Positions 2,714-62,894 of a stretch of DNA of 64,000 nucleotides are shown piece after piece. This stretch comes from an uncultured Verrucomicrobiae bacterium (GTDB lineage: Bacteria; Verrucomicrobiota; Verrucomicrobiia; Chthoniobacterales; JAFAMB01). A program made the position numbers and the translations under genes. The notes beneath the pieces are model-generated. The model made no database searches. It saw nothing but the letters and a program-made list of their open reading frames with translations, and had not been told where the DNA came from. Position 1 is the first letter of the stretch, and each line of letters begins with the position of its first letter. The DNA is taken from NCBI GenBank assembly GCA_963762565.1, contig CAVXLD010000001.1, positions 1,408,001-1,472,000 of the forward strand. Reading direction: 5' to 3'.

Positions 2714-2788
2714 AAAGACTTGGGCGATGCTGCACCGCCACGGCTTCGTTCTCCTCCTCTTAAGGAACACGCGTCGTCGCTCGCCCAA

Positions 2789-3081
2789 CGCCTGGAGGGG
2801 AGCCGCTTTGGCCTGTATGCCTCGCGCTCGCGATATTCGTTTCAGGGCACAATCTGGCTAAAAGAGGTCGCAACAGGCGGCTCCCGCGAATAACCCAGGA
2901 TGATGCAATTATGCTGTGGCTCAATCTGTGGAATCGGCTTGGACACCATCAGTAGACCTGCGCGAGCGCTGGGTGAGTTCCCGGGAGCCGCCTGCTTTCT
3001 ACGCGCATCGGCCGGGGGCCATATTCAGGCGAAACTTAGAAGGTCGGCCCGGCGCGCGCCAAAGCGGCTCCCCTCCAGGCG
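2789..3081. mobile_element. REPIN/MITE-like element, family B
   Basis: Perfect 24-bp terminal inverted repeat CGCCTGGAGGGGAGCCGCTTTGGC; inner inverted pair AGGCGGCTCCCGCGAA / TTCCCGGGAGCCGCCT. Confidence 0.8.
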
Positions 3082-3134
3082 CTGGACGGCTTCTGCACGC
3101 TACGGGGTCGAGGATCCACGGAAGACCGCACGGT

Positions 3135-10425: not shown

Positions 10426-10539
10426 GGAGTGATGGAGTAGCGGAGTGTTGGAGTAATGGAACGAAAGTGTTCGAGCGATCGGGTAGACAAGCGCACCCGC
10501 AGACCAATCACTAATCACCAATCACTTTTCACTTTTCAC
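10426..10539. repeat. Orphan tandem arms (GGAGTnnn 8-mer left; ACCAATC/ACTTTTC 7-mer right)
   Basis: GGAGTGATGGAGTAGCGGAGTGTTGGAGTAATGG and ACCAATCACTAATCACCAATCACTTTTCACTTTTCAC. Confidence 0.7.
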
Positions 10540-16308: not shown

Positions 16309-16338
16309 GCGCTACAGCGCTTCGAATGGTCTGCAGCA

Positions 16339-16570
16339 CTGGAGGGGAGCCGCTTTATCGCAGGGCAGCTCTATGAGGTGGCAGCAAGCGGCTCCCGGGA
16401 AGAACCCAGCATGTACCATTACCGCTGGGTTGGTTGGGCAAAACAGCTTTGAAGAGCCGATAAAACGAACGCAATCAGGGACCGTTCCCGGGAGCCGCCT
16501 GCTAGCCCCGAAAGCTTTCGAGGCTAGCAACCGATAGAGCTAGCAAAGCTACAAAGCGGCTCCCCTCCAG
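16339..16570. mobile_element. REPIN/MITE-like element, family B
   Basis: CTGGAGGGGAGCCGCTTT ... AAAGCGGCTCCCCTCCAG; inner GCGGCTCCCGGGAA / TTCCCGGGAGCCGC. Confidence 0.8.
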
Positions 16571-16708
16571 CGCGAGAGAGCAAATCCGTACGCTGGAACG
16601 AAAACCGCTTTCGACGACGACAACAGCCTGCCCGACGAACCTTTAGGTTTATAGGGAAGCAGCTCGGGCGGTGAGCGAAGTCGGGAGTACGACACTTGCG
16701 GTCGCGCG

Positions 16709-17137: not shown

Positions 17138-17171
17138 AGTCAGCGCGCTAACTCGCTCTAGGCTCGTCAGC

Positions 17172-17257
17172 GAATAGCAAATAGCAAATAGCAGATAGCA
17201 AACGAGGTCACAAACGGGCCAGCGCTACTCCAGCAGACGATTTGCTATTTGCTATTC
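17172..17257. repeat. Inverted TAGCAAA heptamer array pair
   Basis: GAATAGCAAATAGCAAATAGCAGATAGCAAA ... TTTGCTATTTGCTATTC. Confidence 0.85.
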
Positions 17258-19368: not shown

Positions 19369-19386
19369 GCAGCAGCAAACCACGGG

Positions 19387-19510
19387 TCCTTCGGAATAGC
19401 CAATCGACAATAGCCGATAGCCAATAGCGAATGGTCCTGATCGGCCCTGTGCGGGGTTTACAGCAGATCGACTTGGCTATTGGCTATCGGCTATCGTTTA
19501 TTCCGAAGGA
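19387..19510. repeat. Inverted ATAGCCA heptamer array pair
   Basis: TCCTTCGGAATAGCCAAT...ATAGCCGATAGCCAA / TTGGCTATTGGCTATCGGCTAT...TATTCCGAAGGA. Confidence 0.85.
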
Positions 19511-19583
19511 GCCTAAGCGACTTCGGATTGACATTCGGGCTCGGGACGTAGAGGTTTGATTACCGTTAACATTCCCCTCAGTT

Positions 19584-23043: not shown

Positions 23044-23073
23044 CGGGAAGGCGAGGCCGGGCTCGGACCGATG

Positions 23074-23232
23074 AGTGGACGGACTGGACACAGTGGACGG
23101 GAGTGGACCGGGTGGACGTAGTGGACACCGTAAGCGGCGTGCACGGATCATTTGGGCGAGACGCGAAACGTCCACTCCCGTCCACTGTGTCCACCACGTC
23201 CACTTAGTCCACTTAGTCCACTTTCGTCCACT
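23074..23232. repeat. Inverted GTGGAC ~9-mer array pair
   Basis: Six (G/C)TGGAC units facing seven GTCCAC units. Confidence 0.88.
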
Positions 23233-23279
23233 CTGGATTTATTTTGGATGAGGGACGATTCCTGGCCTATTTGTGCACC

Positions 23280-24817: not shown

Positions 24818-24943
24818 AGGAGTTCAGGAGTTGCAGGAGTTCAGGACCCTCCATCGTAGGTACTCGGTTCTCACGTTCCTGGTTCACGGGGCCTTTGTGC
24901 TTGCAATTCTGGGATCGCCCCCAGGCTGAACTCCTGAACTCCT
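24818..24943. repeat. Inverted AGGAGTTC 8/9-mer array pair
   Basis: AGGAGTTCAGGAGTTGCAGGAGTTCAGG / CTGAACTCCTGAACTCCT, between convergent genes. Confidence 0.8.
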
Positions 24944-27557: not shown

Positions 27558-27565
27558 AAGGCTCA

Positions 27566-27852
27566 GGGTTGGTGGGGCGAGGCTCCGGAACCGCCGCTGG
27601 TGTTTGCGAAGCTATTCGCGGACCGCGACGGCAGGGTGAGCAAGGCCGATTCGCTGCCGAGCCGGGCCCAGCGCTGTGCAGCTTAAACCTTGGCTGGCTG
27701 AAGTGAGTTTTGGGTCGGTCGAACGTCTTTAGGGGTGGCAAACTATGGGCCCGGCTCGGCAATGTGTCGGCCCGGTGTGCAACAATCTCGGCCGAACGCG
27801 AGTCGCCTTGTGCGCGCTCCTCGGCCGTTCCGGAGCCTCGCCCCACCAACCC
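27566..27852. mobile_element. REPIN/MITE-like element, family A, nested inside GTGAAAG/CTTTCAC heptamer arms (27543-27874)
   Basis: GGGTTGGTGGGGCGAGGCTCCGGAAC ... GTTCCGGAGCCTCGCCCCACCAACCC. Confidence 0.82.
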
Positions 27853-27981
27853 CGGGCACCCTTTCACCTTTCACGGTCTTCTCCCAACGTTGACAGAACC
27901 GCCCTATCAGCTTTGGTATTAATCACACCATAATGATACCAAAAACGCGTCGGATCAGGAAGAGGGAGCGCAGGGACCGGG

Positions 27982-29415
27982 ATGTCTGATTGTGTTGAGA
28001 ACGTTCTCGACGCGAGGGAACCGGACCGCAGTCGTTCAAACTTAACTGCATTCATTGTTTGTCTGGGGTGCGTGGTCGTTCTGCTCGACATTTCGATCGT
28101 CAATGTCGCGCTGAGACCAATAGCCTCGGGTCTGGGCGGCAGACTCAGCGATCTTCAGTGGATTGTCGATGCCTATACAGTCGCCTTTGCCAGCTTTCTT
28201 CTCAGCGCCGGCACCGCCGGAGATCGCTTCGGAAACAAAAAGGTTTTTGCAGTCGGATTTCTTTTATTCACGATCGCCTCAGTCGTTTGTGGCGCCGCCG
28301 GCAGCCTGCCGGCATTGATCGGCGCCCGCATCCTCCAAGGGATCGGCGCATCGCTGATTATCCCCTGTTCGCTGACACTGTTGAATCATGCATACGATGA
28401 TCCAGCCCAACGAGCGAAGGCGTTCGGCTGGTGGGCGGGGAGCGGTGGAGCTTCAGTCGCTGCCGGTCCAGTCATCGGTGGTTTTCTTGTACACAGTTTT
28501 GGTTGGCGCAGTATTTTTTATGTCAACGTTCCAATCGGTTTAGCTGCGCTTTTCTTGACCTGTAGCTACATTCAGAATGAGCAGCCGCGTCTTGGGCAAC
28601 GAATCGATTGGCCGGGGCAGCTGGTCAGTCTATTTGCGCTCGCTTCGCTCACCACAGTTCTGATCGAAGGAACCAATTGGGGATGGCTTTCTCCAGGAAT
28701 CATAACTTTAAGTGCTGCTTTCGTTGGATTAGCTCTCCTATTTTTTGCGGTCGAGAAGCGACAATCCCACCCGATGTTGCCGTTAACCCTTTTTCAATCC
28801 ACACAATTCACCGTTTCGACCTTCCTCGGCCTTCTCCTGAGTTTCTCGTTTTACGGACTGATCTTTACGCTCAGTATTTATTTCCAACAGGCTCGTCACT
28901 TAACCCCTTTGGAGACAGGATTCGCTTTCTTACCGGTTACAGGGTTGCTCACGGTGATGAACGTTTTTGCTGGCAGACTCGGCGTATGGCGCGGAATGCG
29001 GTTTCCGATTGTGGTCGGGTTTATCGTCGGCGGGATAGGCTTTTTCTGGCTCGCATTTGCCACCGACGCCACCACCGCCTACTCGGGCTTACTTCTCCCA
29101 TTGCTATGCGTTGGCGCTGGGGTACCGCTTATCTTACCGCCTCTGACCACGGTCGTATTGGCATCGGTTGATCGGTCTCAAGTAGGTCTGGCCTCGGCAA
29201 CGTTAAACACCGGACGCCAGATTGGCGCAGCCGCCGGCGTAGCGATGCTCGGTTCATTGCTCACAGCTGCACCCGGCCTGGTTGCCGGTTTTCGCTGGGG
29301 CATGATCATCTCCAGCATTATCTACCTGGTTGGCGCCTTGGTGACCCTCCGCTATTTGCCCCACAACCCGACTTTGCAGAGCGAAGACAACAGACTAAAT
29401 CCAACCGCAGATTGA
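27982..29415 (+). CDS. MFS transporter, DHA2 (14-TM) type
   Basis: LDISIVNVAL, QWIVDAY, GDRFGNK, GPVIGG and WRSIFYVNVP motifs. Confidence 0.92.
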   Translation: MSDCVENVLDAREPDRSRSNLTAFIVCLGCVVVLLDISIVNVALRPIASGLGGRLSDLQWIVDAYTVAFASFLLSAGTAGDRFGNKKVFAVGFLLFTIASVVCGAAGSLPALIGARILQGIGASLIIPCSLTLLNHAYDDPAQRAKAFGWWAGSGGASVAAGPVIGGFLVHSFGWRSIFYVNVPIGLAALFLTCSYIQNEQPRLGQRIDWPGQLVSLFALASLTTVLIEGTNWGWLSPGIITLSAAFVGLALLFFAVEKRQSHPMLPLTLFQSTQFTVSTFLGLLLSFSFYGLIFTLSIYFQQARHLTPLETGFAFLPVTGLLTVMNVFAGRLGVWRGMRFPIVVGFIVGGIGFFWLAFATDATTAYSGLLLPLLCVGAGVPLILPPLTTVVLASVDRSQVGLASATLNTGRQIGAAAGVAMLGSLLTAAPGLVAGFRWGMIISSIIYLVGALVTLRYLPHNPTLQSEDNRLNPTAD

Positions 29416-29624
29416 CGCAGATTAACGCAGATTAGCGAGCGGCAAAAAAACAACCGCGAATGGACGCTAGTTATTCTAAACACAACCTTCATGCCGGAAC
29501 CGTTTAGTACTTTTCCCACCGGCGCTTAGATCCGCCCAAAACCGAAATCTGCGTAATCTGCGGATCATTCCATCTGCAGCTGGCCCGCCATAGCTTTAGC
29601 GACGGCTGGTTCATCTGCGGTTGG
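29397..29624. repeat. CGCAGAT / CGAAT decamer arms (GxxExxY-type) with a hairpin insert
   Basis: CCAACCGCAGATTGACGCAGATTAACGCAGAT, AACCGCGAATGGACGC ... ATCTGCGTAATCTGCGG ... ATCTGCGGTTGG. Confidence 0.85.
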
Positions 29625-29637
29625 TCTGTTACCGGTT

Positions 29638-31323
29638 TTACTCTTTTGTCAGCTTTGCCTTGGCTAAAAGGTATTCGTTGTAAGTAGTCTGGTTGGTAGC
29701 AACGCATCGGGCGTAATAATCTGCGGCTTTTTCTCGATCCCCTGCCAGTTGGCGTTTAAGCCCGGCAAAAAACCATCCTTCGCATGTCTGTCCCCGAATA
29801 GCGACGCCGCTACGCCCGGTTTTGGCCGCTGCCAAGAGCGACGCCTCATCTGTCTTGTCCAGCAAGAAGGCCGCAATCGTCTTCAACCACAACTGAGAGT
29901 TACGTAACTGATTACTTTGGAGATAGTCGGTTAGGCGTTGGTTAGCTTCCGCGACCCGGTTTTGTTGGGCCAGAATCATCCAGAGATAGATTTGACCGTA
30001 GAAACGAACCCGATCGGTTTGCGCTCGCTCGAGCGCCTGTTTTAGGTCCGTGAATGCGCCATCCAAATTAGCGTCCGCTAACTTAATCACCGCCCGTCCA
30101 TTGTAGCCGACAGCATCCGTCGTATCGATTTTTACCGCGGCGTCATAATCTGCCAGCGCGCCGGTCAGATCTCCTTTAGCCCCTCGGAGAAAGCCGCGAT
30201 AACGGTAGCCGGCGGCCTGTTTTGGATCCAATTCGAGCGCTTTGTTGAAATCGCTCTCAGCTTGATCAAGGTCACCACGCCGAACCCGAATGGCCCCACG
30301 ATCCAAGTAAGCGGCCGCGGATTCGGGCCGCAACTGGACTTGAGCGTTCTCGTCGGTTAACGCGGCAGCGGTATCACCCAGGTCCCAGTCGGCAAACCCC
30401 CGCAGAGCGAGAGCGGAAGCGTCCTGTGGCTTAATCTGCAAGGCTCGATTGTAATCGGCGATCGCACCTGCCGAATCATAATTCTCGTGCTTAGCTCGGC
30501 CTCGCTGCACATACGCACTGGCCATCCGCGGATCGACTTTGATAACCTTTGTTAAGTCGGTCTGGGCTCCGTCGTAGTCCCCCACGTCCATCTTAGTAAT
30601 GCCCTCCCAGAAATAGAGGTTGGCCCGGCTTTTGATCAGATTTTGTTCGTGCTTATAACTATTCAGCGCACCGCTAAAATTCAGGACGAACACCTTATGT
30701 AATTCGTTGGTGTGCTCGGACTCAATCCATTTGTTCTGGAGTCTGATGGCTTCTTCGTAATCGGCCAGCGCCGCCGGGAACGCTTTCAGCAGCCGGTTTG
30801 CTCGGGCGCGTCTGATGAAGGCTTGATCAAACTGAGGGCTATATTCCACCGCTTTGGTATAGTCCTCAATAGCTCCCCGCAAGTCTTTGCGCTCTTGTTT
30901 CAGACTGCCGCGACTGACGTACGCGACGCCAAACTGCGGACTAATGTTGATCACTTTGTTGTAGTCGGCCAAAGCACCATCGAAATCGGACTGCGCTTGC
31001 TTTGCGCTACCTCTGCCTAGGTAGGCCATAAAAAATGACGGTGCTATCTGAATAGTTTTGTCGTAATCGGCGATGGCTCCAACCAAATCCGGTAGGCTCT
31101 GTTTAGCGTTGGCCCGACGATAATAAGCTGCCGCAAAGTCTTTGCGCAGCTCGATGGCTTTAGTGAAAAGATTGATGGCTCCGGCGAGATCGCCTCGAAC
31201 TTGGTGCGCAATGCCCCAACTGAAATAGTTATCCGCAGTTGCCGGAGGAAGGGGCCGGCTGCAAGCGATTGGCAAGAGCCCGAGCAAGAGGAAGAGAAAC
31301 CGCGAATGCACGCGAATGGACAC
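29638..31323 (-). CDS. Tetratricopeptide-repeat protein, probable lipoprotein
   Basis: Many 34-aa AY..RG..K...GD..GA.ADY repeats; hydrophobic N-terminus ending in Cys. Confidence 0.88.
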   Translation of the reverse strand: MSIRVHSRFLFLLLGLLPIACSRPLPPATADNYFSWGIAHQVRGDLAGAINLFTKAIELRKDFAAAYYRRANAKQSLPDLVGAIADYDKTIQIAPSFFMAYLGRGSAKQAQSDFDGALADYNKVINISPQFGVAYVSRGSLKQERKDLRGAIEDYTKAVEYSPQFDQAFIRRARANRLLKAFPAALADYEEAIRLQNKWIESEHTNELHKVFVLNFSGALNSYKHEQNLIKSRANLYFWEGITKMDVGDYDGAQTDLTKVIKVDPRMASAYVQRGRAKHENYDSAGAIADYNRALQIKPQDASALALRGFADWDLGDTAAALTDENAQVQLRPESAAAYLDRGAIRVRRGDLDQAESDFNKALELDPKQAAGYRYRGFLRGAKGDLTGALADYDAAVKIDTTDAVGYNGRAVIKLADANLDGAFTDLKQALERAQTDRVRFYGQIYLWMILAQQNRVAEANQRLTDYLQSNQLRNSQLWLKTIAAFLLDKTDEASLLAAAKTGRSGVAIRGQTCEGWFFAGLKRQLAGDREKAADYYARCVATNQTTYNEYLLAKAKLTKE

Positions 31324-31726
31324 GAAGTTGAGTTACGCCGAACACATACAAACCACAACCGCAGATGGAAGCAGCCGTCGCTAAAGGTATGGCGGGAAAG
31401 CTGCAGATAAAATGATCCGCAGATTACACAGATTACGCAGATTACGATCTGGGAGCGAATGTAAGCGGTCAGGCTAGTGAGACCGCGTCCTCGTGTCGCG
31501 TTTCTCCGACCGCCGGTCGTATCAACACCCCAAACGAAATCTGCGTAATCTGCGTAATCTGCGGATATTAAGAACGCTTCCTCGGCTGCTCCACGGCGAG
31601 GCGCGATGCATGTCCCCGCAATAATTTCTATTCGCGTCCATTCGCGGCTTGCCTTTGTCTTTGGCTCCCTCTATCTGCGTAAATTTCACCCCGGAGAATT
31701 TCGGGGCTGCGTTCATCTGCGGTTGG
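31297..31726. repeat. Compound cluster of CGAAT and CGCAGAT 9/10-mer arms with hairpin inserts
   Basis: Left arms at 31297, 31356 and 31415; right arms at 31538, 31629 and 31672. Confidence 0.85.
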
Positions 31727-34199: not shown

Positions 34200-34220
34200 C
34201 GGCGTATCGAAGCCCAGGGC

Positions 34221-34484
34221 TGGTGGGGCGAGGCTCCGGAACGGGCGCTGATATTTCCAAGGCTTTTCGCGGGGTTCCACCGCAATGTGTCTCGGGCCGA
34301 TACGCTGCCGAGCCGCGATCCTGATTCGCCAACACCCAGGAACGCCAAAATCACCCACAAACAGTTTCAGCTGCACCGCGCTGGGCAACGGCTCGGCAGC
34401 GTACGGGCCCAACCCGTCACAAATACACTCACCCAGCTAACCTTCGCCCCAAGTTCTAGCCCGTTCCGGAGCCTCGCCCCACCA
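34221..34484. mobile_element. REPIN/MITE-like element, family A, inside GGCGTGTC-type 8-mer arms
   Basis: Perfect 26-bp IR TGGTGGGGCGAGGCTCCGGAACGGGC; inner GCTGCCGAGCCG / CGGCTCGGCAGC. Confidence 0.85.
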
Positions 34485-34522
34485 ACGCTGAACTTCGTTC
34501 ACCCAAACATCCGACACGCCGA

Positions 34523-35214: not shown

Positions 35215-35364
35215 AACCGCAAATGGACGCAGATTAACGCAGATAAAAGCCAATCCGAACAAACGCTTTGGACGGGAACAAACGCGAATCAAGATTAGAG
35301 GTGCATAAAAGCGAACTGGCGCTCCCACCCCATTATCTGGGTAAATCTGCGTCTGTCTGCGGTT
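35215..35364. repeat. Empty CGCAGAT decamer inverted pair (GxxExxY-type arms)
   Basis: AACCGCAAATGGACGCAGATTAACGCAGATAA / TTATCTGGGTAAATCTGCGTCTGTCTGCGGTT. Confidence 0.82.
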
Positions 35365-35436
35365 GATTTCGTTCTCCGCATCCGTCGAGCCTATTAACGG
35401 TTGAAAATTTTCGATGAAACGCAGAATCTTCGGCTT

Positions 35437-36900
35437 ATGTCCGATCCTGTCTCATCTTCGGGAGCAACTGCAGCTCCTGCTCGTACCGGCGGAAAATATC
35501 TTACCTTACCGGATCAACAGCGGACCACGATGCCCCCCGGTGTGCCTTACATCATCGGAAATGAGGCAGCGGAACGCTTCAGTTTTTATGGGATGCGGTC
35601 GATTCTCACGGTTTTCATGACGAAATACCTGTTGGATCGGAGCGGCCACCTGGCTGTGATGGGCGATGACGAAGCTGGCTCCTGGAGCCATCTTTTTGTT
35701 TCCGCGGTATATTTGCTACCGATCCTCGGTGCGCTCTTATCGGACGGAGTTATAGGGAAATTCAGGACGATCTTTTATCTATCAATCGTCTATTGTTTCG
35801 GCCACTTTTCTTTGGCTTTGGACGATACGCGTCTGGGGTTATTCTTAGGTCTGCTATTAATTTCGTTTGGCGCCGGCGGCATTAAGCCGTGTGTTTCGGC
35901 CAATGTGGGGGATCAATTCGGTCAAGGAAACAAGCACCTGCTCCCCAGGGTGTTCTCCTGGTTCTACTTCTCTATCAATGTCGGCTCGTTCGTCTCCATC
36001 TGGGTCTGCCCGATCTTACTCGATAATCCAAGATTTGGCCCGCACTATGCCTTTGGGCTACCGGGCGTGTTCATGGTGATTGCCACCATCGTGTTTTGGC
36101 TGGGCCGCAAGAAATTCGTACATGTCCGACCTGGCGGCCTTGGTTTCGTCCGTGAAGCCGTAAGTCGCGAAGGCCGCTCTGCCATCGGCCAATTGTTCTT
36201 GATCTACCTGTTCGTCGCGATTTTTTGGGCCCTATGGGATCAAAGCGCCGGAATCGAATGGACGCTGCAAGCCGAACACCTGAATTTAAATTTATTCGAT
36301 ATCCAGCTGTTTGGCTGGCATTTCGGAATGAAATTCTTAGCGGCTCAAGTGTCCGACGCTAACGCTATTTTGATTTTGATTTTTATCCCCCTGTTTAGCT
36401 ACGTCGTTTATCCGCTCATCAATCGGGTGTTTCCGTTAACTCCACTGCGCAAGATCGGTATCGGCCTGTTCGTCATGGCAATCGCATTTGCCATTGTTTG
36501 GTGGTTACAGGTTCGGATTGATGCCGGCGAGACTCCGAATGTCGGATGGCAGTTGTTAGCCTACGTATTCCTGACCGCGAGCGAAACGATGGTTTCAATA
36601 ACCGGTTTAGAGTTTTCTTATACCCAGGCGCCACCAAAGATGAAGAGCGCCATTATGGCGGTCTGGTTGTTAGTGGTTTCTCTCGGAAATTTGTTCACCG
36701 CATTCATTCATAAGCTCGTTCCAACGCTTAAGCCGCTGGGTCTCAATCTTGAAAACGCTGGGTGGTTTCAATTTTTCACGCTGCTAATGCTGGCAACAGC
36801 GGTCCTATACGTTTTTGTCGCTCGCTGGTACCGGGGGAAAACTTATATCCAAGGTGAAGAACTTACCGAATTAGCCACGGCCGAAACACTCAGCAGCTAG
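35437..36900 (+). CDS. POT family proton-dependent oligopeptide transporter
   Basis: EAAERFSFYGMR, GGIKP and FYFSINVG motifs. Confidence 0.92.
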   Translation: MSDPVSSSGATAAPARTGGKYLTLPDQQRTTMPPGVPYIIGNEAAERFSFYGMRSILTVFMTKYLLDRSGHLAVMGDDEAGSWSHLFVSAVYLLPILGALLSDGVIGKFRTIFYLSIVYCFGHFSLALDDTRLGLFLGLLLISFGAGGIKPCVSANVGDQFGQGNKHLLPRVFSWFYFSINVGSFVSIWVCPILLDNPRFGPHYAFGLPGVFMVIATIVFWLGRKKFVHVRPGGLGFVREAVSREGRSAIGQLFLIYLFVAIFWALWDQSAGIEWTLQAEHLNLNLFDIQLFGWHFGMKFLAAQVSDANAILILIFIPLFSYVVYPLINRVFPLTPLRKIGIGLFVMAIAFAIVWWLQVRIDAGETPNVGWQLLAYVFLTASETMVSITGLEFSYTQAPPKMKSAIMAVWLLVVSLGNLFTAFIHKLVPTLKPLGLNLENAGWFQFFTLLMLATAVLYVFVARWYRGKTYIQGEELTELATAETLSS

Positions 36901-36994
36901 GAAGAAATCCAACCGCAGCCCCGAAATTCTCCGGGGTGAAATGGACGCAGATTTGAACCGCGAATGGACACGAATAGACGCGAATAATGTGTCT

Positions 36995-37414
36995 TCAAGC
37001 GCACTCCAGATCGTCGGGGTTGCGGCAATCGGTACTAATGAGACGTTCCCATTCCAATTTTGCGTACTTAAAGTTGAGGATTATTCCAACCGGTAATCGG
37101 CTGATCTTGAGGTAATTCAGCATTTGCCCTCTTTCATGGTTGGTATTCTTATCGATCACTTTGGTATCTACGATGATCCTGCCAAGGACGACTAGGTCTG
37201 GAGTGAATTGGCCGACCTTGACCTTCTTGTAGATAATATCAAAAGGCCTTTGTTGCTGATAGGGCATGTCACGAAGCTGGAATTCGACCGCCAAAGCCCG
37301 CTCATAGGGTTTTTCATGAATCCCGTGGCCAAGCTCCCGTAAAACCTCGATCGCCGCACCCACAATAGAGTAGACCTCCTTAAAAAGGATCTGAGGCGCT
37401 GCTTTCTGCTTCAC
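36995..37414 (-). CDS. GxxExxY protein (PD-(D/E)XK nuclease superfamily)
   Basis: LGHGIHEKPY motif; PD...IIVDTK catalytic core; QMLNYL; GIILNF; 139 aa. Confidence 0.92.
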   Translation of the reverse strand: MKQKAAPQILFKEVYSIVGAAIEVLRELGHGIHEKPYERALAVEFQLRDMPYQQQRPFDIIYKKVKVGQFTPDLVVLGRIIVDTKVIDKNTNHERGQMLNYLKISRLPVGIILNFKYAKLEWERLISTDCRNPDDLECA

Positions 37415-37419
37415 GAAAT

Positions 37420-37447
37420 GCTATAACATATAATAATGATGTATCAA
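37420..37447 (-). promoter_or_regulatory. Candidate sigma70 promoter for a leaderless GxxExxY transcript
   Basis: Minus strand TTGATA-N16-TATAGC (with TGn extension), 5 nt before the GTG; very AT-rich patch. Confidence 0.4.
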
Positions 37448-37617
37448 TATTTGGCGCTCGGGATTCATCCCGAATCGTTCGATCCGCTAACCGCCTGCCC
37501 GCCGACCCACGAATCTCGGAGAAACCCGTATTCGTGTTCATTCGTGTCCATTCGTGGTTTCTTCGTCCTGCTTTCATCTGCGGTTGTTCTCTTCGCCGTT
37601 CGTGCCCAAAGTAATCT

Positions 37618-38160
37618 ATGCGAACCCCAATCTGGTTGGTGATCCTTCTCGGTCTTGTTGGTTGTACTCACCAGGAGGTCACTGAACAGATTTCTATCGG
37701 CGGCCACAGAGTCGTCACCTTCAAGCGCGTCGGAAATGAATTCGCTAGATCTGAGAACGATCGGTTTGCGGTGGTAGAAGCGGGTCTGACTACTTATCGA
37801 ACGGAGGGAAGGAACTTTGTTCGCTGGCAATTCGCGATCCGGCCGAGACCGGAGACCCAGTTGGCGGTTGTCGAAGTAGAAGACGTAACCGGCAGAAGAC
37901 CAGTTTTGCTAAGCAAAGATGAACATCCCCAGATCGAAGAACTACAATGGAGCGGGCAAGGCCCACTGATCCGAGCAACACCGGCCCTGGTTCCCTGGCT
38001 ATTTACCCCGGCTGAAAGTACGCACGTCTTCCGAATCACGGTCACTGAGCCGGACGGCAAACGGTCCTCGCTCTATGAGGCGACACGCTACACCGCAGAC
38101 GCGAAGAAGAAATTCCGCATCATGATGGGGCCAGAATTGCAGAATCCGCCGCAAAGCTGA
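37618..38160 (+). CDS. Hypothetical lipoprotein
   Basis: MRTPIWLVILLGLVGC lipobox. Confidence 0.7.
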   Translation: MRTPIWLVILLGLVGCTHQEVTEQISIGGHRVVTFKRVGNEFARSENDRFAVVEAGLTTYRTEGRNFVRWQFAIRPRPETQLAVVEVEDVTGRRPVLLSKDEHPQIEELQWSGQGPLIRATPALVPWLFTPAESTHVFRITVTEPDGKRSSLYEATRYTADAKKKFRIMMGPELQNPPQS

Positions 38161-38173
38161 AAGCGGAAGGTAG

Positions 38174-38359
38174 CCGTGGAGCGTGCCTCGCTTGCGAGGC
38201 CGTGGTGAGCAAAGCGGACGATGTAGTCACGCGCATTGGCGGGCTGGCTTTTTCGTGTCTATAGGAGAAGGTCGCGACATAGAGCACCGACCGAGATGTG
38301 TTCTGAATCACGGTGTTCCCTTGATCACCACGGCCTCGCAAGCGAGGCACGCTCCACGG
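38174..38359. mobile_element. REP doublet (REPIN-like), family D
   Basis: Perfect 35-bp IR CCGTGGAGCGTGCCTCGCTTGCGAGGCCGTGGTGA; each arm holds a GCCTCGC-TT-GCGAGGC hairpin. Confidence 0.82.
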
Positions 38360-38405
38360 GTTTCCTCCCATTGACAACCCTCGGTAAGCTTCTGAGATTC
38401 AAGCG

Positions 38406-41375: not shown

Positions 41376-41429
41376 GCATTAAGATATAATGATGTTTCGG
41401 ACTGAGGCAATGGGACAGGAGCTGAGACA

Positions 41430-41516
41430 GCGAAACGGCGAATGGGCGAGCAGGCGAAACGGCGAGGGCTGTTCGCCCACACGTTCGGTCGCCCTTTCGC
41501 CCACTCGCCGTTTCGC
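41430..41516. repeat. Inverted GGCGAAAC 8-mer array pair
   Basis: GCGAAACGGCGAATGGGCGA / TCGCCCACTCGCCGTTTCGC. Confidence 0.8.
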
Positions 41517-41588
41517 GGTTTCGTCTGCTCTCCCGGCATTGACAACCTCCAGACTAGTAAGACCTTGCTAGGAATCCCCATCAGACCT

Positions 41589-46398: not shown

Positions 46399-46642
46399 AA
46401 AATCTCACGCAAAGACGCCAAGGCGCAAAGTTCGAAGAAGAAAGCCGGAATAGCCGCGAAAGAACGCAAAAAACGCAAAAAAAAGACAGCCCCGGTAGGG
46501 CGAGGCTTCATTCCCCCTGCGACCTCTTTGGGTTTTTCCGGAGCCTAGCCCTACCAACTTTCTTTGCGTTCTTTGCGATCTTTCGCGGCTAATTTTGCCT
46601 TCTGTCTTTCCTTTGCGTCTTGGCGTCTTTGCGTGAGATTTT
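46399..46642. repeat. Three nested inverted-repeat layers
   Basis: Outer 46399-46430/46611-46642; middle 46451-46479/46563-46591; collapsed family A core 46494-46555. Confidence 0.88.
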
Positions 46643-53960: not shown

Positions 53961-54177
53961 AATCGTTCTCGTCCTCGTCGTCGTCCTCGAATGGGTGTGG
54001 ACCGCTTAGCGATGCGACTAGGGTCTGAGTCATATTAGTCCTATAGGTCCTATAGGTCCCATACGTCCTATACGTCCTATCCGTGCCATGCGCTCCATCG
54101 CGCCTCTGACCAAAGCGACCGCCACCACCTGAAGACCCAAATCGAGGACGAGGACGACGACGAGAACGAGAACGATT
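53961..54177. repeat. Inverted hexamer arms enclosing a TATAGGTCC 9-mer array
   Basis: AATCGTTCTCGTCCTCGTCGTCGTCCTCGA / TCGAGGACGAGGACGACGACGAGAACGAGAACGATT; 9-mers at 54031-54080. Confidence 0.85.
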
Positions 54178-55358: not shown

Positions 55359-55415
55359 TGAATATGATCCGTGGGAATGCGTCGCTGCGCTAGCGGTTAT
55401 CGCGACACAGGGCAC

Positions 55416-55647
55416 GGAGGGGAGCCGCTTTGTAGGTTGGCAGCTCTGCTGGTTGGCAGCAGGCGGCTCCCGCGAACGGCTGCACGGCTACGGGTTGATT
55501 CCTGACGGTTGGGATAAGAGAGGCCTAGGGTAAGAACATCACGCTGGATACTTCGCGGGAGCCGCCTGCTTTCACCTCTTCGAGTTGCACTCGCTTTGCG
55601 GAGAATGCCGACGGGCCATCGCATACGCCCCAAAGCGGCTCCCCTCC
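55416..55647. mobile_element. REPIN/MITE-like element, family B
   Basis: GGAGGGGAGCCGCTTTG ... CAAAGCGGCTCCCCTCC; inner GCAGGCGGCTCCCGCGAA / TTCGCGGGAGCCGCCTGC. Confidence 0.82.
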
Positions 55648-55706
55648 AGGCCGAGGGCGGCGCTCACTTCTTTGGCTCTTTTGCGGCTATCCCCCGATTC
55701 GAGAAC

Positions 55707-60568: not shown

Positions 60569-62779
60569 ATGTCGCTCTATGCGCGGGTGGTCACGGATGA
60601 CCCGACCAACAAAGAACTAGATTATCTCGTCCCACCACCATGGGAAAGCAAGGTCCATGTCGGCTCCCGGGTCAAGGTCCCTTTGCGTTCGAGAGACAGT
60701 TTGGCCACCGTCGTTGCGCTGGTCGATGAATCGACTGCGCCCGGGATCAAGAATGTTGCCGCCCTGGTTTCAGAAGAACCGGTTCTTGATCCCCGGATGC
60801 TAGAGCTTAGCCGCTGGATGGCGGAGTATTACTGTTGTCCCCTGGACGCCGCGATCCGTTGCGCGCTACCTCAAGTGATCCGGTCCGGTACGTTCAAACG
60901 CGAGCGTTGGCTCTCGGTTAACCTGCCCGCAGCCAAGGACATTGTGGAACAACTCAAGGTGCGAGCCCCACGGCAGGCGGAAGTTCTTGAAGTAGCCTTA
61001 CAATTCACTGGGCCGATCCGATGGGCTGAGCTACTCGAAGCCGCTGCTACCAGTGATCGCACCATCAAACAATTGGTAAATCAAGGCTGGCTGACCCTGC
61101 AGATGCTGAACGCCGAACGCGATCCGTCTCAAGGGGAGGAATATGCGTCCACCGCTCCCCTCCGGCTTAATCCCGGGCAACTCAGCATTCTGACGATGTT
61201 GAACGAAGCGATCGATCGCGGCAAAAGTAAACCGATTCTGCTTCACGGGATTACGGGCAGTGGCAAGACCGAGATCTACCTTCAAGCGATTCAGCACTGT
61301 CTCGACCTGGGGCGCGGCGCCTTGGTGTTAGTACCCGAGATCTCGCTGACTCCGCAAACGGTGGAACGGTTTAAATCGAGATTTCCTCGTGAGTTGATTG
61401 CGGTCTTACATAGCCACCTCTCAGCAGGTGAACGACACGACGAATGGCACCGGTTGCGAAGAAGCGCAGCGCGGGTCGCTATCGGCGCCCGCAGCGCGGT
61501 GTTTGCTCCCGTAAAAGACCTGGCCCTGATCGTGGTGGATGAAGAACATGAGAACTCTTATAAGCAGGAGGAAACCCCGCGTTATCAGGCGAGGGACCTA
61601 GCGGTGGTACGCGGTCAGATTGAGGGGTGCGCGGTCTTGCTCGGCTCGGCCACACCCTCACTGGAAAGTTATCACAATGCTCGCACCGGAAAGTATGAGC
61701 TAGCTCGGTTAACCACTCGGGTGGACGATCGGCAACTGCCTTTAATCCGGATAGTCGATCTCCGGCAAGAATTTGCTAAGAGTAAACATCCTTCGATCCT
61801 TTCCCGGCGTTTAACGCAGGCCATCGAAGATCGTCTGCAAAAAAGCGAACAAACGATCCTCTTTCTTAATCGGCGCGGATTCGCTTCTTCTCTGCTCTGC
61901 TCGAAATGCGGGTATGTGTGCGAATGTGCTAACTGCAGCATCCCCTTGACCTTTCATATGACTGAGAACCGCTTGAAATGCCATCTCTGCGGTTATCAAG
62001 CGGTCGCGCCAAAGAAATGTCCGGGCTGTGGCGACCCTGGTATTCGCTACAGCGGATATGGCACTGAGAAAGTCATCGAACTAGTGGAGAAAATCTTTCC
62101 CACGGCACGCGCCGTCCGCATGGATGCGGACTCTATGTCGCGAAAAGATGCTTATCGAAAGACCCTCAATTCCTTTCGTAGCGGCAAGATTGATATCCTG
62201 ATCGGTACGCAGATGATCGCCAAAGGGCTGGATTTTCCCAAGGTGACGCTGGTGGGGATCATCAACGCCGATATTGGGCTCCATATCCCGGACTTCCGGG
62301 CGGGCGAACGCACCTTTCAATTGCTGACGCAGGTAGCAGGCCGGGCCGGTCGAGGTGAGACCCCGGGAGAAGTCTTCGTACAGACGGCGACACCATTCAG
62401 CCCTTCGATCCAGTTCGCCCGGCACCATGATTTCGACGGTTTTTGGGATCAAGAACGCGAATTCCGTGAACGCTGCGAATATCCCCCGTTTAATCATCTC
62501 GTTTTGCTCCAGATCAAATCTGAACACCAGAGATTAGCGGAATTCACAGCGGAGACGCTCCACCGCCGTTTGGGCGAGAAGATTGACTCATCGGTGACGC
62601 TTCACTCCGTCGTTCCCGCCCAAATCGAACGGGTGAAAGGGTTTTATCGGTTCCAGATCTTGTTGCGTACCCGGGCTATCCTCCGGCTCTCACGAACGAT
62701 CCGCGAAGTGATCGATAGCCTTTCGTTTCCAGATGATGTGCAGGTGAGTATCGATGTCGATCCGTACCAGCTGCTGTGA
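60569..62779 (+). CDS. priA: Primosomal protein N'
   Basis: GITGSGKT, DEEH, SATPS, four CxxC pairs and QVAGRAGR. Confidence 0.96.
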   Translation: MSLYARVVTDDPTNKELDYLVPPPWESKVHVGSRVKVPLRSRDSLATVVALVDESTAPGIKNVAALVSEEPVLDPRMLELSRWMAEYYCCPLDAAIRCALPQVIRSGTFKRERWLSVNLPAAKDIVEQLKVRAPRQAEVLEVALQFTGPIRWAELLEAAATSDRTIKQLVNQGWLTLQMLNAERDPSQGEEYASTAPLRLNPGQLSILTMLNEAIDRGKSKPILLHGITGSGKTEIYLQAIQHCLDLGRGALVLVPEISLTPQTVERFKSRFPRELIAVLHSHLSAGERHDEWHRLRRSAARVAIGARSAVFAPVKDLALIVVDEEHENSYKQEETPRYQARDLAVVRGQIEGCAVLLGSATPSLESYHNARTGKYELARLTTRVDDRQLPLIRIVDLRQEFAKSKHPSILSRRLTQAIEDRLQKSEQTILFLNRRGFASSLLCSKCGYVCECANCSIPLTFHMTENRLKCHLCGYQAVAPKKCPGCGDPGIRYSGYGTEKVIELVEKIFPTARAVRMDADSMSRKDAYRKTLNSFRSGKIDILIGTQMIAKGLDFPKVTLVGIINADIGLHIPDFRAGERTFQLLTQVAGRAGRGETPGEVFVQTATPFSPSIQFARHHDFDGFWDQEREFRERCEYPPFNHLVLLQIKSEHQRLAEFTAETLHRRLGEKIDSSVTLHSVVPAQIERVKGFYRFQILLRTRAILRLSRTIREVIDSLSFPDDVQVSIDVDPYQLL

Positions 62780-62781
62780 CA

Positions 62782-62875
62782 GAATAGCAAATAGCAGATC
62801 GCAAATAGCAAATGGGGCTTTTGAACTGCCCAGCGCTCGGTTCGCGGACAATTTGCTATCTGCTATTTGCTATTC
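62782..62875. repeat. Inverted TAGCAAA heptamer array pair
   Basis: GAATAGCAAATAGCAGATCGCAAAT / ATTTGCTATCTGCTATTTGCTATTC. Confidence 0.88.
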
Positions 62876-62894
62876 AGTCCGGCTCTGACGGCAG

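Follow-up and report, generated by a model that had tools for sequence, protein, structure and literature searches.

The window analysed here, a stretch of 64,000 nt from an uncultured Verrucomicrobiae bacterium, carries between positions 36905 and 37586 a single open reading frame (ORF) for a small nuclease of the GxxExxY / PDDEXK_3 family, enclosed by two layers of inverted arrays of a short unit (Table 1). The preliminary description of this region had reported a 139-residue ORF with the word GHGIHEKPY and an intact PD...D-T-K core, inner inverted arms, an outer layer of arms and an AT-rich, promoter-like patch inside them, and all of these are confirmed. GHGIHEKPY occupies residues 29-37 of the protein (G29xxE34xxY37) and is followed by P72-D73, D83-T-K85 and Q97xxxY101; the inner arms, of 31 nt each, are mirror images that are 87% complementary and consist of decamers of the form NNACRCGAAT (NNAC-R-CGAAT); the outer layer is built of CGCAGAT-type units; and the patch contains a promoter-like site, an AT-rich stretch resembling it being present also in three orthologues (L001-L003; L-numbers denote the loci, of 10 kb each, that were compared with the window). 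A scan of the window cassette for intrinsic terminators found none. The cassette had further been thought to interrupt unrelated genes on the opposite strand, which did not hold: the cassette occupies the spacer that separates a POT peptide transporter gene (35401-36900, plus strand, with its stop at 36900) from a lipoprotein-like ORF (37618-38160, plus strand, with a lipobox LVGC recognised by eye), and, its neighbours merely lying on the opposite strand, no gene is therefore interrupted.

Is the coincidence of gene and arrays more than chance? The window abounds in inverted short-tandem arrays of other, unrelated units, so that a chance encounter had first to be ruled out. Scanning the GTDB representative genomes with an alignment of the family gave 79 loci, nearly all from metagenome-assembled genomes (MAGs) of Verrucomicrobiota and with 55-78% protein identity, dense sampling being confined to one clade (at least 55% identity). 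In these 79 loci plus the window, tblastn located 81 genes, 78 of which (77 homologues and the window's own) had 400 nt on both sides, and each flank pair was scored by the best local alignment between the upstream flank and the reverse complement of the downstream flank. A score of at least 30 was reached by 74 of the 78 GxxExxY genes, against 9 of 371 further ORFs in these loci (Mann-Whitney p 1.5e-40). The unit C-R-C-N-R-A-T was present in both arms of the best inverted flank match around every one of the 78 genes, with at least two units per arm around 74. Many of these loci are orthologous, and the independent units are about 28 flank contexts rather than 78 genes; arms are present in 27 of the 28. 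The controls scoring at least 28 are themselves informative, because four of the seven that were scanned proved to be transposase genes, two of them Y1/IS200-like (RAYT-like) and two DDE (the rest belonged to other array families), from which it follows that the flank test detects real elements. The pairing of gene and array is not chance, and the proposal of the preliminary description that inverted arrays mark GxxExxY genes in preference to control genes is strongly supported as a specific link.

The cassettes so defined have a remarkably uniform build. Exact ends, AACC... upstream and ...GGTT downstream, were found for 72 of the 81 genes, and the typical cassette of 425-450 nt comprises a 30-nt arm, the ORF and a second 30-nt arm, with the adjoining genes abutting the arms (median gap of 5.5 nt from the upstream stop and of 10.5 nt to the downstream start). 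Co-orientation with both neighbours was seen for 35 of 69 cassettes and opposition to both, the arrangement seen in the window, for 12. The upstream arm contains the in-frame ATG closest to the core, at an AATGGAC unit junction, in 36 of 48 compact cassettes, which accounts for N-termini such as MDAN in database proteins. A longer variant of 574-604 nt, found in the window, L001, L002 and L003, has ~115 additional bases, together with a conserved AT-rich stretch that separates arm and start codon; these four orthologues at the POT-lipoprotein junction differ in layering, having one to three layers of two or three units each. The L003 orthologue (at ~5340) has TGA in place of the conserved Trp122 codon, so that its protein is ~17 residues shorter; its arms are kept.

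The protein matches Pfam PDDEXK_3 (PF13366; 1.8e-31, 109.3 bits against a cut-off of 22) and NCBIfam TIGR04256 GxxExxY (1.3e-34, 119 bits against a cut-off of 35); these are its only profile matches, and it does not have the character of an HUH/Y1 (IS200-like) transposase. A homologue search placed 913 relatives near it, and D73, D83 and K85 do not vary among the 45 homologues that were aligned. In the AlphaFold2 model (pLDDT 83) a helix (34-47), four strands, a second helix (92-105) and two strands follow one another, an order that in this model conforms to the alpha-beta-beta-beta-alpha-beta fold of restriction-endonuclease-like proteins. The top Foldseek matches were all PD-(D/E)XK nucleases (the best being 3ijm, LHK-Exo, SSO0001 Cas4, lambda exonuclease and Hjc) but weak, with E ~4e-3 and TM 0.35-0.52, and a search of solved structures with the family profile gave nothing at E<=0.3 beyond the chance level (E 0.3). 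The conserved helix H-E-R-G-Q-x-L-N-Y includes the QxxxY word, which we take to be a motif of the RecB/Cas4 branch. Neither PADLOC nor PHROGs returned a match, and hence gave no backing for a known defence or phage role; a phage collection queried with a Bacteroides homologue likewise returned none. The earlier statement that GxxExxY proteins belong to the PD-(D/E)XK superfamily and have no assigned function agrees with the profile matches and with the pertinent portion of a 2012 survey of the superfamily, which lists the function of GxxExxY / PDDEXK_3 as 'Unknown' (PMC3424549).

Arm sequences had also been noted to recur without the gene, and this is borne out at three sites of the window, namely 29401-29626, 31297-31726 and 35215-35364. 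The double-unit pattern has 13 matches in the window against 0.16 expected (none of 100 shuffles reached 13), and a generalised scan found 7 unit arrays against 0.03 in simulations; matches and arrays alike all lie at 29.4-37.6 kb, with no unit array in the remaining ~56 kb. The right half of the 29401-29626 element is 89% complementary to 31368-31437, and a 39-nt stretch around the mini-hairpin of the left outer arm of the cassette is 95% complementary to 31673-31711; a near reverse complement of the mini-hairpin itself stands at ~31689-31706, in the same place within another outer arm. Beyond the window, complete gene-less arm pairs of 67-210 nt were found in at least 10 loci, their density being 3.1 per 10 kb up to 250 nt from the cassette (extra layers) and 0 within the adjacent genes. 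At 1-2 kb, where the following spacers lie, it is 0.72 per 10 kb, and farther out it drops to 0.08-0.23 (0.08-0.19 at 3-5 kb), so that the gene-less pairs cluster within ~2 kb of cassettes. If single-stranded, gene-less elements would form long hairpins (z -4.4 to -8.3), the element at 35215-35364 folding as single-stranded DNA with z -4.4. This last element, of 150 nt, lies in the upp-POT spacer in the window only, L001 having another repeat there and L003 a short spacer without the element, and L028 carries two gene-less copies that are 91% identical and 1.4 kb apart. Such presence/absence differences between spacers, together with the L028 duplication, indicate that gene-less elements turn over locally while the cassette stays. 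Their clustering near cassettes and their presence or absence in orthologous spacers also support a putative dependence of the gene-less pairs on the nuclease.

Table 1. The nuclease cassette and the gene-less arrays, with positions in the window
Feature	Position	Strand	Description
GxxExxY / PDDEXK_3 nuclease gene	36995..37414	-	139 aa, GTG start; sole ORF of 36905-37586
Promoter-like AT-rich site	37447..37418	-	TTGATA-18-TAGCAT; between upstream inner arm and start codon
Inner arm, upstream of gene	37529..37559	-	In gene orientation AACCACGAAT GGACACGAAT GAACACGAAT A; three decamer units
Inner arm, downstream of gene	36956..36986	-	In gene orientation TATTCGCGTC TATTCGTGTC CATTCGCGGTT; begins 9 nt past the stop codon
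Outer arm, CGCAGAT type	36910..36952		CAACCGCAG (36910-36918) ... TGAAATGGACGCAGAT; GACGCAGAT at 36944-36952
Mini-hairpin of 18 nt splitting the left outer arm	36919-36936		CCCCGAAATTCTCCGGGG
Outer arm partner, CGCAGAT type	37568..37587		CTGCTTTCATCTGCGGTTGT; ATCTGCGGTTG at 37576-37586
Gene-less hairpin	35215..35364		AACCGCAAATGGACGCAGATTAACGCAGAT, 86-nt loop, reverse-complement arm; upp-POT divergent spacer
Composite gene-less region	31297..31726		Three interleaved arm pairs (next three rows)
Arm pair, CGCGAAT	31298-31326/31627-31650		Within 31297..31726
Arm pair, outer type	31355-31376/31705-31726		Within 31297..31726
Arm pair, CGCAGATTA 9-mers	31415-31453/31528-31566		Within 31297..31726
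Gene-less element	29401..29626		CCAACCGCAGATTGACGCAGATTAACGCAGAT ... TTCATCTGCGGTTGG; between convergent MFS and TPR genes

Is the cassette a mobile element, as was first supposed? The 81 genes fall into 28 flank contexts, the largest of which have 12, 10, 9, 7, 7 and 7 members. L001-L003 share the gene order of the window over ~10 kb (mannitol dehydrogenase, lipoproteins, GxxExxY, POT, upp, methyltransferase), and the POT-lipoprotein junction holds the gene in all three of these relatives with no empty allele, although loci picked for carrying the gene could not have shown one. The window cassette is thus not currently mobile but inherited vertically at a fixed site, and the occupancy of the junction goes against its earlier portrayal as an autonomous mobile member of a repeat system. 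Of the accompanying proposal that the nuclease mobilises or amplifies the arrays as RAYTs do, the link between gene and array stands, whereas autonomous mobility is opposed by the occupied junction, by the 28 contexts and by the purifying selection described below. Older movement may nevertheless have left its traces. At one junction of bacterial microcompartment (BMC) genes a CGCAGAT-type cassette is found in L024 and a CACGAAT-type cassette in L036, L045, L055 and L070, a tree uniting the former with the latter being marginally rejected by the approximately unbiased (AU) test (p-AU 0.0365); and L045 has two cassettes 3.3 kb apart that are 88% identical, the second of which (L045_b) is 75% identical to its site-mate L016. 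Judged from these sequences, the mixed types and the L045 pair look like traces of older copying or conversion. Several paralogous cassettes per genome are possible, L006 for instance lying in the same MAG as L001. As to the BMC junction itself, its upstream gene ends in ...VDAVIIGIVD..., its downstream gene starts with M-x-x-V/I-N/D-E-T/N-L-I/V-R, and an EutN/CcmL gene is near in L024. The labels Klebsiella, Bifidobacteriaceae and Akkermansia muciniphila borne by some of the MAGs (L008, L023, L045, L048, L058, L070) look unreliable, since the flanks of these loci are syntenic with Verrucomicrobiota/Verrucomicrobiae loci.

In four orthologous cassette groups the identity of the arms (0.86-0.96) matches that of codon positions 1+2 (0.87-0.95) and lies far above that of position 3 (0.49-0.67), and so gene and arms are both under constraint, that is, purifying selection. 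At what level does this constraint act? It is conceivable that the two arms base-pair within the transcript and enclose the ORF in a ~30-bp stem, where cleavage by RNase III or concealment of the start, comparable to the fold-back lock of hok mRNA, would keep a toxic nuclease low and uncouple the insert from the host operon, the gene-less hairpins being ordinary RNA stem-loops. The compact cassette with its 30-nt arms is indeed strikingly like the layout of the Coxiella intervening sequence (IVS) as given in the relevant section of PMC4990558, the start codon lies within the upstream arm of most compact cassettes, and in the co-oriented cassettes, with gaps of only a few bases to either neighbour, the arms would be transcribed. 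Yet in a stem transcribed from one strand G-U should outnumber A-C, and among the 2160 cells formed by 30 arm positions in 72 cassettes there are 1862 Watson-Crick pairs, 72 G-T, 72 A-C and 154 others, so that in the sense strand there is no wobble bias. Nor do the most variable arm positions, the spacers 11, 12, 21 and 22, covary, being no more complementary than shuffled partners (31-89 of 500 shuffles reach the observed value); the pattern is therefore unlike that of an rRNA-type stem, in which G-U is tolerated and A-C avoided. One core is common to all six units, a uniformity that pairing alone would not demand, and the purine (R) is the same in all six in 51 of 72 cassettes; since both arms are arrays of one conserved word, their complementarity follows from the word and not from kept pairing. 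Moreover, the gene of Gemmatirosa lies between two complete hairpins rather than within one, the upstream arm in the window is separated from the start by 114 nt and a promoter-like site and may thus be outside the mRNA, and a scan of window positions 28-40 kb found no Rfam family match. A stem in the RNA consequently strikes us as improbable, and the substitution pattern points to a constraint at the DNA or protein level, with a protein presumably reading the word on DNA.

The preliminary description had proposed to compare repeat unit and protein phylogeny. They do covary: mapped on the protein tree, the R (purine) state requires 2 changes, compared with ~20-23 in five listed shuffles of the 200 run. 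Unit type thus tracks the protein tree, which shows co-inheritance but does not in itself prove recognition. One residue stands out in this comparison, as residue 14 is Thr in all six cassettes with (A/G)GAT units and in none of the 64 with AAT units, the six occupying four positions on the tree and belonging to different syntenic groups. The Thr14 group was, however, defined after the labels had been seen, the trees, built from 118 columns, have few supported branches, and independent contrasts between V14T and unit type offered too few supported pairs for significance. The correlation may represent anything from one to four events, and residue 14 is at most a candidate for a specificity residue.

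Beyond the Verrucomicrobiota, too, the gene has related units as companions. In a small sample of eight plasmid records with homologues of 28-37% identity, joined by a ninth locus that is a second Gemmatirosa copy, 21 copies of the pattern ACRCRRAK lie in the 2.88 kb adjoining the gene ends, compared with 9 in the remaining 23.9 kb. Full inverted arrays are found in Bacteroides finegoldii, as inverted triple 9-mers GGAC-R-CAGAG, and in Bernardetia, as CACAGAGA arrays, while in Gemmatirosa each of the two hairpins that bracket the gene has the form AACCGCAGAG-GACGCAGAG-GGCCGCAGAG / reverse complement. Sphingomonas has a ACGCGAAG array upstream only, between fabD and fabG, Treponema has a single inverted ACACGGAT unit on each side, and in Persicobacter no unit was seen near the gene. 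A Prevotella locus (L082, 1370-1460 and 1880-1980) and a fusobacterial one (L083, 1390-1470 and 1850-1920) have direct repeats of ~50-65 nt flanking the gene instead of inverted arrays, which look as if the spacer had been duplicated around it. Related units thus accompany the gene in Bacteroidota and Gemmatimonadota, and the word and the AACC...GGTT ends recur across phyla. One Gemmatirosa copy (L088, 1494-1868) was matched in two pieces and may be frameshifted; its arms are kept.

What, then, might the partnership of gene and array do? It seems to us an evenly balanced proposition that the locus is a member of a conserved nuclease-repeat partnership which works like that of RAYTs with repetitive extragenic palindromes (REPs), association, selection and local turnover being observed directly, and binding, cutting and causation being deduced here from sequence patterns. 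The chances are likewise about equal that the units between which the GxxExxY gene is embedded, of ~10 bp with the core ACRCGAAT / ACGCAGAT and with AACC...GGTT ends, are cognate to its product. The protein would recognise the units on DNA, where they lie one helical turn apart, two or three per arm and in mirror symmetry, and would cut at or near them; cutting, with host repair or replication, would then seed, duplicate or maintain gene-less hairpins nearby, and the same activity may occasionally copy or convert cassettes between sites. In a wider and more tentative version, to which we lean somewhat less than half-way, GxxExxY and its ACRCRRAK arrays would form an ancient, multi-phylum nuclease-repeat 'genome symbiont', a second class after RAYT-REP but with a RecB/Cas4-like hydrolase, which reads a 7-8-base word per helical turn, cuts, seeds hairpins into neighbouring spacers and converts cassettes via host repair.

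Several observations weigh against such a partnership. The link between enzyme and substrate is drawn from co-occurrence and co-divergence, which co-inheritance alone could yield, and a hydrolytic PD-(D/E)XK nuclease cannot carry out strand transfer by itself, so that any copying needs host functions. Specificity is not clean either, as the gene-less copies of the window are mostly of the CGCAGAT type and the inner arms of the gene of the CRCGAAT type, though the CGCAGAT-type copies might go with another paralogue, such as L006 in the MAG of L001. A single origin of Thr14 is not clearly rejected (AU p 0.065), with one contrast on well-supported branches. Paralogues within one genome are 65-88% identical and give no sign of recent cassette movement, and no consistent target-site duplication was noticed in the cassette junctions inspected, no systematic test having been made. 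The counts of gene-less copies cover the 64-kb window and the 10-kb loci, not whole genomes; within this scope such copies were seen only within ~8 kb of the gene in the window and near cassettes in the loci. Finally, a comparison of gene-less loops with gene and cassette interiors found no gene remnants, the matches being arm units and one duplicated hairpin only, from which it follows that gene-less elements are not deletion derivatives of the cassette. An origin of these elements by internal deletion, in the manner of miniature inverted-repeat transposable elements (MITEs), is ruled out by the same dissimilarity between loops and cassette interior.

Could the order of events have been the reverse, with hairpins as pre-existing host repeats and the gene as a selfish newcomer of the homing type? 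The nuclease would then cut gene-less hairpins and repair from a gene-bearing copy would put the gene at the hairpin centre, where, always lying between two half-sites, it would be protected from its own product. Such a course would account for the position of the gene exactly between two half-arrays and for the arms nested within arms in the window, L001, L002 and L003, as insertion into hairpin centres predicts, as well as for the cassettes of different protein clades at the BMC junction (L024 against L036/45/55/70) and for the closer resemblance of L045_b to its genome-mate (88%) than to its site-mate (75%). A working homing enzyme should, however, convert the intact gene-less hairpins that persist beside cassettes; the POT-lipoprotein junction offers no empty allele among its three occupied relatives (again with loci chosen for the gene), and the AU result for the BMC junction is marginal. 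Homing genes usually decay after fixation, and long-term purifying selection at fixed sites would be unusual for one. We consider homing unlikely for these reasons. Least of all do we favour the arrays being operators for repression of the gene by its own product, or by a host factor, through looping of the DNA between the arms, with gene-less copies as decoys or regulatory sites of neighbouring genes and no copying involved: the helical spacing of the units, their mirror symmetry around the gene, the overlap of an arm with the start codon or promoter region and a conservation of arms like that of protein-coding positions would all suit this very doubtful scheme, but a pure repressor has no need of catalytic residues that are invariant in 45 aligned homologues, and regulation alone leaves unexplained why gene-less copies differ between orthologous spacers and duplicate.

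The RAYT-like partnership would, if correct, have consequences beyond this locus. The fixed link to a defined DNA word already gives the large GxxExxY / PDDEXK_3 family a concrete and testable substrate, and it suggests more than one origin, from unrelated enzymes, for partnerships of the REP-RAYT kind between repeats and nucleases, besides offering a way to trace where the many hairpin arrays in Verrucomicrobiota spacers come from. Should the 'genome symbiont' reading be true, it would provide the first function for the GxxExxY family and might account for some of the dense inverted short-tandem arrays that fill verrucomicrobial intergenic DNA. Full-text literature on GxxExxY, PDDEXK_3, TIGR04256 and PDDEXK with inverted repeats, a scope outside which lay subscription journals, database family notes and bioRxiv supplements, yielded no account of the gene-array pairing; one preprint mentions the PDDEXK_3 domain only in passing, and the literature on repeats of Verrucomicrobia/Planctomycetes held nothing relevant.

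The window holds many other repeats. Hairpin-like array pairs of period 6-10 lie at 10426-10539, 17169-17256, 19384-19513, 23073-23235, 24818-24943, 41412-41534, 53961-54177, 62778-62879 and elsewhere, with units such as GGAGTGAT, AGCAAAT, AATAGCC, GAGTGGACG, AGGAGTTC, GCGAAACG, TCGTCC and AATAGCA, and none has a gene inside. A two-layer gene-less array at 46399-46642 has ACGCAAAG-type units and the end AAAATCTCACGCAAAG; the same unit and end surround a NUDIX gene in another genome (L002, 8770-8803 and downstream of 9959), which suggests a second family of conserved arrays, with a unit near the generalised one. A separate MITE-like family with inverted CTGGAGGGGAGCCGCTTTG ends ~190-250 nt apart is represented at 2782-3088, 16327-16582 and 55396-55667; a repeat with such ends also occupies the upp-POT spacer of L001 (~2580-2870), where the window has a gene-less element. 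Two copies of an inverted-repeat family with GGTGGGGCGAGGCTCCGGAAC ends stand at 27561-27857 and 34208-34497, and at 38165-38368 two arms of 48 nt, 90% complementary to each other, enclose 108 nt.

How does the GxxExxY system compare with those already known? RAYTs with their REPs or REPINs come closest, for in both cases a single small nuclease-type gene is flanked by inverted short repeats (78 of 78 genes here) that also occur without the gene, is inherited vertically at a fixed site and has a repeat type that tracks the gene clade. According to the pertinent passage of PMC5581495, RAYTs as a rule occur in single copy and seem to have ceased copying themselves, and this fixed, vertically inherited, repeat-flanked pattern makes the RAYT analogy a better fit than a transposon. 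The window enzyme is, by contrast, a PD-(D/E)XK hydrolase and not an HUH/Y1 transposase, its repeats are tandem arrays of a 9-10-bp unit where a REP is one imperfect palindrome with a GTAG/CGTC tag (as set out in the section concerned of PMC3733652), and GxxExxY cassettes can be present as several paralogues per genome; differing in enzyme class and repeat form, the GxxExxY system is not a member of the RAYT family. Both kinds of gene-plus-repeat coexist in one genome, as Y1 IS200-like (RAYT-like) genes with GC-rich inverted repeats of 42-45 nt lie a few kb from GxxExxY cassettes (L009, 6369-6935; L024, 9157-9882). The IVS of 23S rRNA (Coxiella, S23p) resemble the compact cassette in their size of ~430 nt, in inverted repeats of ~28-30 nt and in an ORF that fills the loop (for Coxiella, the relevant part of PMC4990558 gives 428-444 nt, a 28-bp stem, an ORF in the loop and cleavage by RNase III); the cassette differs in lying outside rRNA, in encoding a nuclease and not a four-helix-bundle protein, and in having arms that are unit arrays without covariation of the RNA type. 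With insertion sequences and MITEs it shares inverted ends with sharp boundaries, short gene-less forms and nesting, but it has no DDE, serine or tyrosine transposase, its copies are syntenic across species and diverged instead of near-identical and multi-copy, its gene-less loops are unrelated to the gene, and consistent target-site duplications went unnoticed, though not systematically tested for. The RecB/Cas4/lambda-exonuclease branch and archaeal Hjc, finally, share with the protein the fold, the catalytic D...D-x-K and presumably the QxxxY word, from which GxxExxY proteins are set apart by weak structural matches, the lack of Fe-S cysteines and a much smaller size of 125-140 aa.

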